Shown here in pieces: positions 3,301 to 7,007 of a stretch of 64,000 bases of DNA. The first letter of the stretch is position 1; every line of letters starts with the position of its first letter. A program made the position numbers and the translations under genes. Under the pieces are notes generated by a model. The model worked only from the letters and a program-made list of their open reading frames with translations, had not been told where the DNA came from and ran no database searches. This DNA comes from Candidatus Cloacimonadales bacterium (lineage in GTDB: Bacteria; Cloacimonadota; Cloacimonadia; Cloacimonadales; JAIOQZ01): contig CAXXTU010000001.1 in assembly GCA_963662655.2 (NCBI GenBank), forward strand, positions 32,001 through 96,000, given 5' to 3'.

Positions 3301-3423
3301 ATTTCGTTTTTGCTTCGCAAAAGCCGAAATGCAATAGGAAATTTACTATCCACTTTCGCTATTTCGCTTCGCGAAAGGCTTTCGTTCGATGATTTCGTTT
3401 TTGCTTCGCAAAAGCCGAAATGC
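3301..3423. repeat. Hairpin-repeat element (REP-like): two identical 32-bp palindromic units flanking a shorter hairpin
   Basis: ATTTCGTTTTTGCTTCGCAAAAGCCGAAATGC occurs at 3301-3332 and 3392-3423. The intervening DNA contains TTTCGC-TTC-GCGAAA. A homologous inverted copy lies at 29204-29276. Confidence 0.85.
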
Positions 3424-3425
3424 GG

Positions 3426-3461
3426 AACACGCCCCCTCGGGATTGAAGGGGCGTGCTTTTT
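3426..3461. terminator. GC-rich stem-loop between convergent genes, probable intrinsic terminator
   Basis: CACGCCCC (3428-3435) pairs with GGGGCGTG (3448-3455), followed by CTTTTT on +. On the minus strand the stem extends to about 13 bp with G-U pairs. Confidence 0.65.
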
Positions 3462-3481
3462 ATGTGGTGCAGTTGCCGGGC

Positions 3482-3706
3482 TTATTCTGGGGAGGCTTCC
3501 GGCTTCACGATCGTTAGCTCATACTTCCGATGAAGCTGTTTCACCTTTTCGAGCGTATTCGTGAAGGTCGCATGATCGTAATAGTAGATGATATTCTTGA
3601 TTCTGGATTCATCCGTCGTTACCGTGAAGCCTATCGAACCTTTGTTCATGTCCGAGCGGGACTGAGTGATTTGGATGAGTCCAATATCGATAATATTTTC
3701 TACCAT
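3482..3706 (-). CDS. Small hypothetical protein (74 aa, MVENIIDIGL...KPEASPE), probable sigma54-dependent target
   Basis: A GGAGG RBS (3719-3715) lies 8 nt before the ATG at 3706. The gene sits immediately downstream of a -24/-12 motif. The longer start at 3748 falls at the edge of the promoter and has no RBS. Confidence 0.65.
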   Translation of the reverse strand: MVENIIDIGLIQITQSRSDMNKGSIGFTVTTDESRIKNIIYYYDHATFTNTLEKVKQLHRKYELTIVKPEASPE

Positions 3707-3731
3707 TTCCAGAACCTCCACTCTTCTATAT

Positions 3732-3747
3732 TGCATAAGCCATGCCA
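3732..3747 (-). promoter_or_regulatory. Sigma54 (-24/-12) promoter
   Basis: The minus strand reads TGGCATGGCTTATGCA, i.e. GG-N10-GC, close to the consensus TGGCACG-N4-TTGCW. Predicted +1 is about 3721, just upstream of the RBS. Confidence 0.75.
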
Positions 3748-3828
3748 TTCAGGATCACGAGGGGATTAATGAGTGCAAAGTGTTTAGATACAGGAGTTTA
3801 GACCGTCCATACCGAGGAGAAACGGAGA

Positions 3829-3883
3829 TCACGAAAACGTGACGAATCACGATACCGTGACGATGAAAATGGCGGAAACGTGA
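3829..3883. promoter_or_regulatory. Putative upstream activator sequences: tandem TCACG-N4-CGTGA palindromes
   Basis: TCACG-AAAA-CGTGA (3829-3842), TCACG-ATAC-CGTGA (3847-3860) and a degenerate TGGCG-GAAA-CGTGA (3870-3883). They lie about -108 to -162 from the predicted sigma54 start. Confidence 0.7.
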
Positions 3884-3901
3884 TGGTTGGGCCAGGGGGG
3901 G

Positions 3902-6163
3902 CTACTTCAAATCGTACTTTTTCATTTTGCGAAAGATGGCATTCTGCGAGATACCAAGCAGCTCTGCCGCTTTTTTCTGATTCCATTTCGACCGATCGAG
4001 AGCGGTTTTCACCAGTTCCCGCTCGTTCTCATCCAGATTGAGGTTTTGACGCACCTCGATCGATGCGAGATTGTTTTTCACCTCTTTGACGGGGAGGATC
4101 TTACGGGCAATCGATTCATTCAATATCCGATCGTCGGCGAGAATAATCGCACGTTCGATCAGGTTTCGCAGTTCCCTCACGTTGCCCGGGAAACTGTAAG
4201 AACGGAATTTCTCGATGAATCCCTCCGTTATGTTGGAGGGTTCTCGGTTCAGCTTCTTTCCGATCAGATCAATGTAATGCCACATGAGAACGATGATATC
4301 CTCGGGCCGCTCCCGCAATGGTGGGATATAGATTTCGATGGTATTGAGCCGGTGGAGCAGGTCATACCTGAATTGATCGTCCTCCACGACTTGATGGATG
4401 TCCCTGTTGGTGGAGGCGATCACACGGAAATCGACATCGATGGGCGTGCTGTCCCCGACACGGATAATCTTCTTCTCTTCGATGGCGCGCAGGAGTTTGG
4501 CCTGGAAATCGAGAGGCATTTCGGTGATTTCATCCAGAAACAGCGTACCCCTGTTCGCTTGCTGAATAAATCCACGCTTGTCGCAGTCGGCGCTCGTGAA
4601 GGCACCTTTCACATGCCCAAAAAACTCGCTTTCAAAAAGGTTTTCGCTGATCGCGCTGCTGTTGATCGCGCAGAAATAGGCATCCTTGCGAACGCTCGCG
4701 TGATGGATAATCCGCGAGATAATCTCCTTGCCAACACCGCTCTCCCCGTAGATGATCACGTTGACGTCCGGATGCATCGCCGCCCTCATCGCCATGTCGT
4801 GCACGTCTCGTATCTGCTGGCTCTTGCCAATCAACTGATGCCCCACCTGCTGCTGAAGATCGGCGTTGAGAAGCTCGCACCGCTCTTGTAGATTCTCGTA
4901 CTGGGTATTCAGAATGTCGTAACGCTTCTTGATGTTCGAGATATCTTCATGGGAGGTGAAGTCATACACCCTTTCGTAATACCGAACGCACTCCAGCAGA
5001 TAGCCGTAAGCGTCCTCGAAATCGCCCCTTTCGGCAGAATTGTAGGAGAGATTCCGGTAGGCCTCTCCGAGGTGCGTTTTCAGGTTGTGTTCCTTGAGGA
5101 TGTCGATCCCGCGCTTGATATACTCTTCCGCGGTCGAGTAGTTACCGCTAATGCGCTCGCACGAGCCAATATTGATGTTCAACAAGGCGTACAATTGAGG
5201 ATTTTCCTCTTTGTGTATCGATTCGAGAGCCTTCATGTAATACTTCATCGCCTTCTTCACCTGATTCAGGCCGAAATAGATATTGGCGATGTTGTTGTAA
5301 AGCGTGCCCCGCTGCCAGAACATGTTCAATTCGGTGTAGAGCTTCAGCGCTTTGAAGTAGGATTTCAGGGCGTTCGCCAGATCGTTCGTCTTATGGTATA
5401 CGACGCCGAGATTGATGAACAGCACCGCGAGCATCTGCTTGTCGCCCAGTTTCTCGAGCTCGTCCTGTCCTTTCGAGTAGTACTCGAAAGCCTTGTCGTA
5501 TTCCTGAAGATTGCGATAGCAGTTGCCGATATTGAGGATGATCCGGCCCTTGACTTTCTCGACCTTGTACTCGATGCTCATACGCCAGGCAAGCATGTAA
5601 TACTCGAGCGCTCGCTTGTATAATTCCTGCTTCACCAAGCCGGTAGCCATTTTATTGTATGTTTGAATCAAAACTTCATGGTTGCCCAACTTACGATTGA
5701 GGACGATCGACCGTTCATAGTAAGCTTGCGCTTTTTTTAAATCCCCGAGCTCCATGTATGCAAAGCCGATGTTCTGGTACCTGCTCGGATTCAAGCTTTC
5801 GTCTCCCATCCGGGCAACGATCTCGTCGATCTTCAGGCAATGGTTCAACATCGAACGGATGTCGTTGTTCATCCAGTAGGAGTTGGCGATTTCATTGTGA
5901 CTCATAGCGAGCAAATCAAGCAGGTGATGAACCTCGAGAAGCGGCATGACTTTCTCCAGGATGTTCATCCCTTCAGCCATTTGCCTAAGCTTGAGCTTGC
6001 CAATGCCCTTGAGAGTCTGAAGTTCGAGATATGCATTCGATCGGGGATTGGCTGGCATCTCCTTGAGATGTTTCTCAACAAGCTGTAGCGTTTCCTCCGG
6101 CTTCGTATGGATATCCTTCCGCGCCGCCGTCAAGAATGAAACGATTGAATGGTCCTCCATCAA
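3902..6163 (-). CDS. TPR-repeat sigma54-dependent enhancer-binding protein (TPR-AAA+-Fis HTH)
   Basis: About 400 aa of TPR repeats (e.g. NIGNCYRNLQEYDKAFEYY), Walker A GESGVGKE, GAFTSA loop, Walker B FLDE, FPGNVREL, and a C-terminal HTH (KAAELLGIS). No receiver domain. Confidence 0.92.
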   Translation of the reverse strand: MMEDHSIVSFLTAARKDIHTKPEETLQLVEKHLKEMPANPRSNAYLELQTLKGIGKLKLRQMAEGMNILEKVMPLLEVHHLLDLLAMSHNEIANSYWMNNDIRSMLNHCLKIDEIVARMGDESLNPSRYQNIGFAYMELGDLKKAQAYYERSIVLNRKLGNHEVLIQTYNKMATGLVKQELYKRALEYYMLAWRMSIEYKVEKVKGRIILNIGNCYRNLQEYDKAFEYYSKGQDELEKLGDKQMLAVLFINLGVVYHKTNDLANALKSYFKALKLYTELNMFWQRGTLYNNIANIYFGLNQVKKAMKYYMKALESIHKEENPQLYALLNINIGSCERISGNYSTAEEYIKRGIDILKEHNLKTHLGEAYRNLSYNSAERGDFEDAYGYLLECVRYYERVYDFTSHEDISNIKKRYDILNTQYENLQERCELLNADLQQQVGHQLIGKSQQIRDVHDMAMRAAMHPDVNVIIYGESGVGKEIISRIIHHASVRKDAYFCAINSSAISENLFESEFFGHVKGAFTSADCDKRGFIQQANRGTLFLDEITEMPLDFQAKLLRAIEEKKIIRVGDSTPIDVDFRVIASTNRDIHQVVEDDQFRYDLLHRLNTIEIYIPPLRERPEDIIVLMWHYIDLIGKKLNREPSNITEGFIEKFRSYSFPGNVRELRNLIERAIILADDRILNESIARKILPVKEVKNNLASIEVRQNLNLDENERELVKTALDRSKWNQKKAAELLGISQNAIFRKMKKYDLK

Positions 6164-6224: not shown

Positions 6225-7007
6225 TCACTGAATTAATGATATCGAATGAGTCAATGAAAAAAGCAAAACCAACGAAAATAATAAAATTCCGACAACCTGC
6301 ACCAGATAGTCCCACATCGTCAGGCGTTCGAGCATGAAATCCGTTCGCATCTTCCGATAGCGAAATCCCCGCATCTCCAGCGATATTGACCGATACTTCA
6401 CATCGTTCAAAACACCTGCCACGATTGGCACGACAAGGCAAGAAATCGCCTTTCCTCGTTTGAGAACCGGGATGTCGCCCAGCCTGATCCCACGTACCTG
6501 TAGCGCTTCCCTTATCACCGTGATCTGTCGGCGAAACATCGGGATGAAATGGATCGTGGAGGCGATCAAGAAGGAAATCTCGTACGGGATTTTCCATGCG
6601 CGGAAGGCCCTGAGATAATCCGTGAACGGATAATCGAACAGCAAACCCGCAACGAGAACGATCAGAAACAGTCGCATCGAAGTTACCGCCGCATAGGTGA
6701 GCCCCGTTTCGGTTATCAGCAGCAGATGCCATTGAAACAACGGCTCACCTCCCCGGCGTAACAGCACTTGCGCTATGAAGATCGCTACGATCACCCGGAA
6801 TATCCGTTTGATTCGATGCAGGATCCTGACAATCGATTGCCTACTTCGATTTTTTACTATCAGAATCAGACAGGTAAAAGCGATTGCTGCCGCCTGAATC
6901 GTAATGGATTGTGATGCGATAGCAAGCGAAGAGATCAGCATAACCAGAACCAGCATCGTTCTGAGGCTCAATTGATTAGGCCTTTTTATCTGTTGGAATT
7001 CCTGCAT
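6225..7007 (-). CDS. ecfT: Energy-coupling factor transporter transmembrane (T) component
   Basis: Multiple TM helices, the HFIPMF segment, and paired X-R-G motifs (LQVRG, LEMRG) typical of EcfT/CbiQ coupling helices. Confidence 0.85.
   Translation of the reverse strand: MQEFQQIKRPNQLSLRTMLVLVMLISSLAIASQSITIQAAAIAFTCLILIVKNRSRQSIVRILHRIKRIFRVIVAIFIAQVLLRRGGEPLFQWHLLLITETGLTYAAVTSMRLFLIVLVAGLLFDYPFTDYLRAFRAWKIPYEISFLIASTIHFIPMFRRQITVIREALQVRGIRLGDIPVLKRGKAISCLVVPIVAGVLNDVKYRSISLEMRGFRYRKMRTDFMLERLTMWDYLVQVVGILLFSLVLLFSLTHSISLIQ

Follow-up and report, generated by a model that had tools for sequence, protein, structure and literature searches.

The activity of the sigma54 activator (bEBP) PspF is controlled in trans by PspA, and in Porphyromonas the PorXY two-component system together with the ECF sigma factor SigP reportedly controls the genes of the T9SS machinery. 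In the bEBP table of PMC7175178, in the portion of the source available, the regulatory domains of groups 1 to 4 do not include a TPR superhelix. A TPR superhelix with groove asparagines is a described feature of RRNPP receptors (PMC4794775, excerpt), and in RcbB/RcbA the TPR represses an output domain and a co-encoded partner relieves the repression (PMC12282931, excerpt). No description of a TPR-sigma54 cassette was found in the literature searched.

The window (64,000 nucleotides of a Candidatus Cloacimonadales genome) contained a locus which, with a probability of about 0.55, is one copy of a Cloacimonadota-wide cassette whose TPR activator likely binds its own dyads, is predicted to fire the adjacent promoter, and whose small product likely acts back. 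The elements listed on the minus strand by the first-pass annotation (activator, dyads, promoter, ribosome-binding site, ORF and hairpin) were all where it had placed them:

3902..6163, minus: TPR-AAA+-HTH sigma54 activator (bEBP), 753 aa, from Pfam, NCBIfam, motif location and hydropathy
4970..5929, minus: TPR array of eight 40-aa repeats (aa 79-398) that carries an asparagine ladder, then a long helical linker, from the structure model
4331..4834, minus: sigma54-interaction AAA+ domain (Sigma54_activat), aa 444-611 (PF00158, E 1e-59, 201.5 bits)
3914..4033, minus: Fis-type HTH (HTH_8, PF02954), aa 711-750, recognition helix SQNAIFRKM
3870..3883, no strand: distal degenerate dyad TCACG-N4-CGCCA, predicted UAS, 14/16 positions invariant in four genomes
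3847..3860, no strand: middle perfect dyad TCACG-N4-CGTGA, predicted UAS, from sequence and conservation
3829..3842, no strand: proximal perfect dyad TCACG-N4-CGTGA, predicted UAS, centre at about -115, from sequence and conservation
3732..3747, minus: predicted sigma54 -24/-12 promoter TGGCAT-N5-ATGCA, from sequence and conservation, +1 predicted at 3721
3715..3719, minus: Shine-Dalgarno GGAGG, invariant in four genomes
3482..3706, minus: 74-aa beta3-alpha protein with invariant G26, F27 and N38, from its Cloacimonadota family, model and purifying selection
3459..3480, minus: element CCCGGCAACTGCACCACATAAA, 22 nt right behind the stop codon, 22/22 invariant, candidate 3' RNA element
3426..3457, minus: GC-rich hairpin, loop ATCCC conserved, where the transcript probably ends, from folding and comparison of relatives

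The N-terminal part of the activator matched TPR families (Pfam), Walker A, Walker B, R-finger and sensor II motifs were all located in its AAA+ domain, and its hydropathy peaked at 1.09, without a transmembrane segment. The sigma54-contact loop read GAFTSA here and GAFTNA in three orthologues, against the consensus GAFTGA; the variant residue here is Ser, and NorR variants G266N and G266D stay active (PMC2941729, excerpt). The activator did not reach the NCBIfam equivalog cut-off for any of the best 25 of 40 families, and could not be placed in a named bEBP subfamily (NtrC, NifA, NorR, PspF, RtcR, PrdR and others). The TPR array was modelled with a pLDDT of 93.4, and ladder asparagines 211, 251 and 291 were kept in 23/31, 28/31 and 26/31 rows, respectively. 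Its closest natural folds were the TPRs of LGN/Pins (rmsd 2.2-4.5 A over 320-370 columns); Rap and NprR structures were at 8-12 A, and the TPR profile matched both across about 340 positions (E 5e-22 to 1.5e-20). The groove asparagines of RRNPP receptors were present, with TPR N-terminal and AAA+ and HTH C-terminal, not in the RRNPP order of an N-terminal HTH or 3-helix effector and a C-terminal TPR. By profile and modelled fold, the array looks like a cytoplasmic, LGN/RRNPP-like binder of extended peptides, in agreement with the ligand-binding role proposed for it earlier.

The two perfect dyads started 18 bp apart and the promoter lay 84 bp downstream of the proximal one. Across the genus (four Ca. 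Cloacimonadales genomes, this one included), the activator gene, three TCACG dyads, promoter, ribosome-binding site, 74-aa ORF and hairpin recurred in the 3/3 other genomes; dyads, promoter, ribosome-binding site and ORF were kept in 4/4 genomes, while 12/81 spacer positions were invariant. The distal dyad was the best conserved of the three, and the TGGCA of the promoter was invariant; its GC was shifted by one base in one genome (G001), so that the strict pattern matched only 3/4. The perfect dyad occurred eight times in the genome against 5.5 expected, a count near chance which makes a lone dyad uninformative; the sole tandem pair of perfect dyads was that at 3829-3860. A whole-genome scan for tandem-dyad promoters scored 41.1 at the locus and 24.2 at the next best place, with a matrix trained partly on the locus's own sites, and gave no second such promoter. 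The rpoN gene was found in this genome and in 5/5 relatives tested. The checks proposed by the first-pass annotation (rpoN, synteny with motif conservation, and the dyad scan) thus bore out its sigma54 circuit with cognate upstream sites, motif and ORF being conserved beside orthologous activators. IHF-like sites near -85 matched only with 1-2 mismatches and are not claimed.

In the set of cassettes compared, a perfect dyad lay 60-170 bp upstream of the promoter in 45/45 cassettes, compared with 1019/2250 shuffles. Dyads were common to 87/144 ordered pairs of activators with 7-9 identical recognition-helix residues, to 46/242 with 5-6 and to 105/1594 with 0-4, counts in which kin occur among the pairs, so that pairs are not independent. 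The SQNAIFRKM-type helix class co-occurred with TCACG dyads. The tracking of dyad sequence with recognition helix supports cognate HTH-dyad binding, and it is from this covariation that binding by the present activator is predicted.

The 74-aa ORF, previously described as an orphan, belongs to a new multi-copy beta3-alpha family of Cloacimonadota that normally leads T9SS cargo operons and is present in 61/232 genomes of the phylum. Leader proteins ranged from 70 to 110 aa across relatives, and beta3-alpha leaders had pI values between 4.3 and 9.7 and, apart from Met, no more than three invariant residues. Pfam gave no family over cut-off for 34 members and NCBIfam none for the small protein; no relative was found by sequence among solved structures (best E 0.075), no Foldseek match at E 0.001, and sub-threshold leads only in the ESM Atlas. 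Long Calx-beta/cadherin-like repeat proteins matched over a 20-45-residue hairpin only and were left out of the counts. A metagenome scan gave no close relatives, and 11 exact 19-mer matches all lay outside any cassette and were taken as chance. Between two genomes of the genus (G002 and G003), 56 codons showed 26 synonymous and no non-synonymous differences, and the leader was under purifying selection even without cargo. Nothing in the evidence pointed to the defence effector that had been suggested, and a defence role, being without supporting context, was dropped.

The circuit had been presented as if unique, and is one of eight: the genome carries eight TPR-bEBPs, all (8/8) with a small neighbour gene, three of them beta3-alpha and five receiver-like. 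Among 47 wide loci, the next gene encoded a T9SS-type CTD in 31, TGG-N10-GC was found within 90 nt in 33 (background 165/2810 genes), and a TPR-bEBP lay within 1.5 kb in 27; the other 20 had none within that distance (some are truncated at the end of a contig or locus), and seven of the 47 had no long secreted-looking gene behind. The CTD was over cut-off in all cargos tested (PF18962, 5/5; TIGR04183, 4/4). In this genome SprA and PorU were over cut-off and about 197 of 2810 crudely called genes bore a CTD, and no T9SS cargo followed its beta3-alpha cassettes (0/3). In a quick tree, one branch set apart the activators with beta3-alpha leaders (30 rows, SH-aLRT 95) and another those with receiver-like leaders (19 rows, SH-aLRT 84); the kind of leader goes with the activator's clade. 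The same agreement would arise, without physical contact, if a linked cassette were duplicated.

Behind the ORF, the 22-nt element, missing from the first-pass annotation, was invariant at 22/22 positions in four genomes, compared with 17/74 third codon positions. It was seen solely in this genus and not repeated elsewhere in the genome; behind 71 other family members it was absent (best 15/22, within shuffle range). A coding role was rejected, the +1 frame ending in it having no start codon and antisense ORFs not being conserved. The hairpin had a stability z of -3.2 (1/200 shuffles equally stable) and one base pair with a compensatory change. Its U-run was present in relatives and weak or absent here; of the stem-loop described earlier the hairpin stood, and a terminator was not called. 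In the four sequences the 22-mer was largely unpaired and 5' of the conserved hairpin, in the manner of a conserved seed. Rfam gave no match, Hfq was absent from 5/5 genomes, and no complementary target was conserved across the four genomes, the whole-genome duplex screen covering G000 only. An upstream mRNA target was not accepted: pairing was strong in G000 (-26.8) and G002 (-32.7), in cbiQ both times but at different sites; in G003 it was weak, at -19.8, where 60 background windows had a median near -21.

The cassette most probably encodes a one-component activator that senses a protein or peptide and whose own regulatory partner is the product of its first target gene. By fold and analogy, the TPR array likely restrains the AAA+ domain as long as no stretch of extended peptide or protein is bound. 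HTH dimers on the three dyads would then bring the ring together, with opening of the -24/-12 promoter, following the standard bEBP mechanism. In most relatives the transcript would begin with the small leader gene and continue into a gene for T9SS cargo, as seen in gene order. That the leader is the activator's partner and provides feedback is put forward tentatively, at somewhat under even odds; a role as feedback ligand is plausible. As cargo is missing in this genus, the output here may be the leader protein plus possibly a trans-acting 3' RNA element, a suggestion held a little more loosely still.

The small protein could instead be a nucleic-acid-binding effector (AP2/Arm-like or HPF-like) on other genes or RNA, possibly its own 22-nt element, that does not touch the activator, with promoter and activator working as above. 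Its best structural matches (AP2-type 6sy0, Z 6.0; mitoribosomal rows, Z 5.2-5.5; HPF, Z 5.3) point to nucleic-acid rather than TPR binding, but all are below 8 and so indicate a common structural arrangement, with no Foldseek match. An Arm-DNA-bind row for a relative (TM 0.58) was under the tool's bar, and pI was at least 7.9 in 20/34 members, but 6.1 in this one; the strands lack conserved basic residues. Persistence without cargo also suits an effector, but the absence of the 22-mer behind other members does not, and this alternative is unlikely without being negligible. A leader serving its cargo, as cytoplasmic chaperone or readily translated first ORF for coupling, would make the cargo-less copy a leftover. 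In many cases the leader runs into the start of the cargo gene or ends right at it (spacings -4, -1, -8), and in 11/33 the leader starts 28-30 nt below the -24 box, giving a nearly leaderless mRNA. Strong purifying selection on the protein and intact UAS and promoter in four cargo-less genomes, mutually unrelated cargos behind a conserved leader fold, and a second, unrelated, receiver-like leader type in the same slot nevertheless make this improbable.

A main output in the form of a GlnZ-like 3'-derived small RNA (the invariant 22-mer and the hairpin, together about 55-60 nt), with the protein secondary, has precedent in a bEBP-controlled 3' UTR sRNA (10.1101/2022.04.01.486790, excerpt) and agrees with the invariance and unpaired state of the 22-mer; with the protein itself strongly selected, only four sequences compared, and neither Rfam match, Hfq nor conserved target found, it is distinctly improbable. 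RRNPP-type quorum sensing, with the small ORF as a pro-peptide that leaves the cell, is processed and returns to bind the TPR, fits the Rap/NprR profile matches and the adjacency of small gene and receptor gene. The better fit of LGN-type TPRs and the different domain order and output oppose it, and so does the ORF, whose hydropathy peaked at 0.22 without a hydrophobic signal segment and which was modelled as a compact folded domain (pLDDT 86.8) conserved in its core and not at its C-terminus. Nothing pointed to a secreted pro-peptide, and this explanation is very improbable; a ligand encoded elsewhere would be compatible with these results.

On the reading of a self-regulating TPR-sigma54 cassette, the TPR is a likely new input class for sigma54 activators and the small proteins define a new family. 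The cassette recurs across an uncultured, T9SS-rich phylum, usually ahead of secreted proteins; it would be an undescribed way to switch those on, and it offers an initial model, open to testing, of how Cloacimonadota choose which secreted protein to make. The natural helix-dyad pairs amount to a recognition code for Fis-type HTHs that is ready to use, and may supply orthogonal sigma54 parts; all of this is testable in E. coli. In a broader picture, doubtful as a whole, the phylum would run a bank of one-component sigma54 switches that are orthogonal to each other. Each TPR-bEBP would have its own dyad, sensing of an intracellular protein or peptide in an LGN-like groove, a co-encoded small partner with either of two folds that can replace each other, and one T9SS cargo; the switch here would have lost its cargo and turned into a trans-acting node with two outputs, the small protein and an Hfq-independent 3' sRNA.

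Like GlnZ, the 3' UTR sRNA of glnA, the candidate element is a conserved sequence lying after the stop codon and ahead of the terminator hairpin in an mRNA under (here predicted) bEBP control, but neither Hfq nor a target was found here. RRNPP receptors (Rap, NprR, PlcR, Rgg/RopB) are alike in the cytoplasmic TPR array, groove asparagines and small neighbour gene; here, in contrast, an N-terminal TPR feeds into an AAA+ domain, output is through sigma54, the neighbour lacks a signal segment, the host is a diderm of the FCB group and the TPR fold is closer to LGN/Pins. RcbAB of Vibrio vulnificus likewise has a TPR fused to a signalling output, a co-encoded partner and a model of repression and relief, but its output is c-di-GMP and its partner itself a TPR protein (PMC12282931, excerpt), whereas the putative partner here has 70-110 aa. 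With bEBP groups 2-4 (DmpR, NorR/NifA, PspF/HrpS) the cassette shares the AAA+ core, the Fis HTH and tandem UAS 100-160 bp upstream of a -24/-12 promoter; three enhancer sites are as in NorR, and the first target's product may control the activator in trans, as PspA does PspF. It differs from these bEBPs in its regulatory domain, a TPR superhelix of 40-aa repeats, in paralogues with distinct dyads, and in a target leader of a new family. As in PorXY-SigP, transcriptional control would be tied to the T9SS, but here through one-component sigma54 cassettes over individual cargo operons.

All elements that the first-pass annotation had placed on the minus strand were present in the sequence:

6163-3902, minus strand: TPR-AAA+-HTH activator gene, 753 aa (TPR, Sigma54_activat and HTH_8 matches)
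3870-3883: degenerate third dyad
3847-3860: middle perfect dyad, TCACG-N4-CGTGA
3829-3842: proximal perfect dyad, TCACG-N4-CGTGA
3747-3732, minus strand: -24/-12 box, predicted promoter
3719-3715, minus strand: GGAGG (RBS)
3706-3482, minus strand: 74-aa ORF
3457-3426, minus strand: hairpin (by folding)

Perfect dyads numbered 8 in the 3.8-Mb genome (5.5 expected), so that a lone one is attributable to chance, and the sole tandem pair was at this locus. The proposed genome scan covered 483 promoter-like sites, and no other strong tandem TCACG match turned up (score 41.1 at the studied locus vs. 24.2 at the next, a paralogue, with a matrix partly trained on the studied locus), which supports a one-promoter regulon. 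RpoN, presupposed by the proposed circuit, was encoded in the source genome (G000), as were two HU/IHF-family proteins. The two perfect dyads jointly formed a hairpin with a minus-strand T-run (3838-3851; called terminator-like), which could terminate the activator's own transcript. A palindromic, REP-like intergenic repeat lay at 3301-3420, with about 20 more partial copies in the genome.

The same cassette stood behind the same cbiQ-like gene in three other same-genus genomes (labelled Candidatus Cloacimonadales), as anticipated. Dyads, promoter, RBS and ORF were retained across the genus genomes, and the spacer had diverged (12/81 positions invariant). Codon comparison shows purifying selection on the 74-aa ORF: between G002 and G003, two of these genomes, 56 aligned codons had 26 synonymous differences and 0 non-synonymous ones. 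The CbiQ/EcfT-like gene (6225-7007), which has no ECF ATPase genes next to it in the window, was directly upstream of the activator in 4/4 genus genomes; an aldolase-like gene (label by eye) preceded it in the three relatives, not in G000.

No cargo gene followed the 74-aa leader at the studied locus; in its place, the stop codon was followed by 22 bases invariant in 4/4 genomes, with a conserved hairpin 3' of them. By comparison, 17/74 third codon positions were invariant, and the longest invariant run inside the ORF was 11. From this alignment, the 22-nt element is a real constraint. It was not found outside the genus among the genomes searched, was absent behind 71 other family members and had no Rfam match; Hfq was not found in 5/5 genomes, and no conserved target emerged. 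Candidates are a protein-binding site and a 3'-derived sRNA, the latter a likeness to GlnZ (excerpt of 10.1101/2022.04.01.486790); an RNA role is plausible but less likely than not.

The 74-aa ORF had been called an orphan, which did not hold: an iterated profile matched in 61/232 Cloacimonadota genomes, at most 7 times in any one, and matched 165 representatives in the protein library at E 0.001. About a dozen of the 150 library matches listed were long repeat proteins aligned over a short hairpin only, and the few named members were Cloacimonadota hypotheticals. G26, F27 and N38 were invariant across 34 aligned family rows. The small protein was modelled as three strands and a helix (pLDDT 86.8), and no significant family or fold match was found in sequence-family, solved-structure and fold searches. 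As seen with P0154 and P0255, the family's first beta-hairpin resembled a hairpin in long repeats that look adhesin-like (by eye); candidate readings are mimicry and convergence.

Nor was the circuit the one-off that had been implied. The 19 bEBPs of G000 included eight TPR types of 730-790 aa, each in a cassette with a small neighbour gene (8/8), and with a strict TGG-N10-GC box downstream in 6/8. The neighbour was a 74-aa family member in three, the studied one included, and in five a 96-136-aa protein whose profile matched response-regulator receiver domains. These five stand-alone receiver-like leaders, each lying between a TPR-bEBP and a large secreted-looking protein, were on contig C2 of G000:

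2272631-2273011: receiver-like leader
2997295-2997624: receiver-like leader
3196762-3197049: receiver-like leader
2548558-2548872: receiver-like leader
3243085-3243420: receiver-like leader

The proteins behind them had 834-1351 aa and a signal-peptide-like start (by eye), with a type A C-terminal domain (CTD; own profile) in 1/5 and a different tail in the others. Most of the five leaders had no obvious phospho-acceptor Asp (by eye). The cassette at G000:C2:3196762-3197049 was nearly identical to G001:C1:837420-837707 in a second species of the genus (branch lengths 0 and 0.013), likely by recent transfer; other cassettes were far diverged.

Wider context was taken from 47 loci of about 116 matches, a non-random set of 7 seed loci and 40 chosen for length of contig. 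A -24/-12 box lay within 90 nt of the leader in 33/47 (background 165/2810 genes), a TPR-bEBP within 1.5 kb, tandem or divergent, in 27/47, and a T9SS-type CTD on the next gene in 31/47; with seeds excluded, counts were 28/40, 23/40 and 25/40. In the remaining 16/47, the next gene was long and ran off the locus (4), was long and signal-peptide-like without a T9SS-type CTD (5), or was other or none (7). The CTD of tested cargos matched PF18962 (5/5) and TIGR04183 (4/4), and SprA and PorU scored over their cut-offs in G000; according to a review, Cloacimonadota may possess T9SS (excerpt of PMC11285876). T9SS-type cargo followed 0/3 of the 74-aa-family cassettes of G000, which counts against extending the cargo-leader pattern to the studied locus. 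Large signal-peptide-like cargos at L108:1024-4623, L109:3577-6135, L110:3415-7602 and L114:3475-7308 shared a tail F(Y/F)x(V/I)x(A/V), which is not the type A CTD and may be a second Cloacimonadota sorting domain. The leader ATG was 28-30 nt below the -24 box (about +2 to +4) in 11/33 promoter-bearing loci (L010, L011, L012, L068, L069 and others), whose predicted sigma54 transcripts would be nearly leaderless.

A quick tree was built from 60 AAA+-HTH regions. One branch (SH-aLRT 95) set apart the 30 activators whose leaders are beta3-alpha (the 74-aa family), and another (SH-aLRT 84) the 19 whose leaders are receiver-like. This agreement can arise from linkage alone, the loci having been gathered via their leaders. 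The agreement suggests that the leader belongs constantly to the switch and not to the cargo, in line with its retention under selection where cargo is absent. The receiver-like-leader clade adjoined two receiver-type bEBPs of G000, one behind a TPR histidine kinase; descent of TPR-bEBPs by collapse of a TPR-kinase and response regulator pair is suggested. At L128, L131 and L136-L138, a receiver-like leader with a sigma54 box immediately preceded the gene of a receiver-type bEBP, an arrangement that may be an ancestral, two-component version of the cassette. The leader may feed back on its own activator, at somewhat below even odds, PspA-PspF being an analogue.

A perfect 5-bp-arm dyad lay 60-170 bp above the promoter in 45/45 cassettes with readable helix and promoter (shuffles 1019/2250; receiver-like L134 and L139 omitted, their activator not being shown to be of TPR type). 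Recognition helices paired with dyads as follows:

QNAI(F/Y)RK: TCACG
PKSLERR: TGACG
QKAVERR: AGACG
SEATLxRR: ATTTCA
YSLSRK: TGCAA
YSTFKR: TGAGC (mostly)

Ordered pairs shared a dyad in 87/144 cases with 7-9 identical helix residues, 46/242 with 5-6 and 105/1594 with 0-4, counts which are descriptions and not P values because kin are not independent. The dyads are likely cognate sites of the adjoining activators.

The activator had eight 40-aa TPR repeats in residues 79-398, most of them with Asn at the corresponding position (Asn at 211, 251 and 291 in 23, 28 and 26 of 31 aligned activators). The activator model (pLDDT 93.4) best fitted, among natural proteins, LGN/Pins TPR domains (rmsd 2.2-4.5 A over 320-370 columns), with a poorer fit to Rap and NprR (8-12 A); the sequence profile of the array also covered Rap and NprR (about 340 positions). 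Groove asparagines of RRNPP regulators contact the peptide backbone (excerpt of PMC4794775). Given such an array and groove asparagines, and no transmembrane segment found in the activator, it is reasonable to infer that the activator senses, in the cytoplasm, an extended stretch of peptide or protein. Related arrays occurred in about 35 other G000 proteins, many with kinase-like motifs; the TPR array is therefore a general sensor module in G000. Catalytic motifs were intact. The sigma54 loop read GAFTSA in G000 and GAFTNA in three orthologues; GAFTSA need not mean inactivity, because NorR with Asn or Asp, rather than the Ser of G000, at the equivalent position still activates and escapes N-terminal repression (excerpt of PMC2941729), and by analogy the change might loosen control.

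Gene order, conservation, domain content, family breadth and helix-dyad covariation are direct observations. As in established bEBP action (excerpt of PMC7175178), HTH dimers on the UAS would lead to ring assembly and ATP-driven opening of the sigma54 promoter; the TPR array would repress the activator until a peptide or protein ligand relieves it, by analogy with RcbB (excerpt of PMC12282931). No published description of such a circuit was found in the literature searched, mostly outside subscription journals and without supplements, and mention elsewhere is possible; in the available text of PMC8542988, Cloacimonadota secreted hydrolases are described and the words sigma and tetratricopeptide are absent. 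The activator has a TPR groove like that of RRNPP receptors, yet its domain order is different and the small gene beside it does not look like a pro-peptide. By the features testable in sequence it is a bEBP, with a GAFTSA loop in place of the GAFTGA consensus, and it is predicted to work as in a bEBP circuit; no named bEBP subfamily cut-off of NCBIfam was reached among the 25 best of 40 families. The original observation is real, and the system is broader than first thought, a variant of the bEBP circuit.
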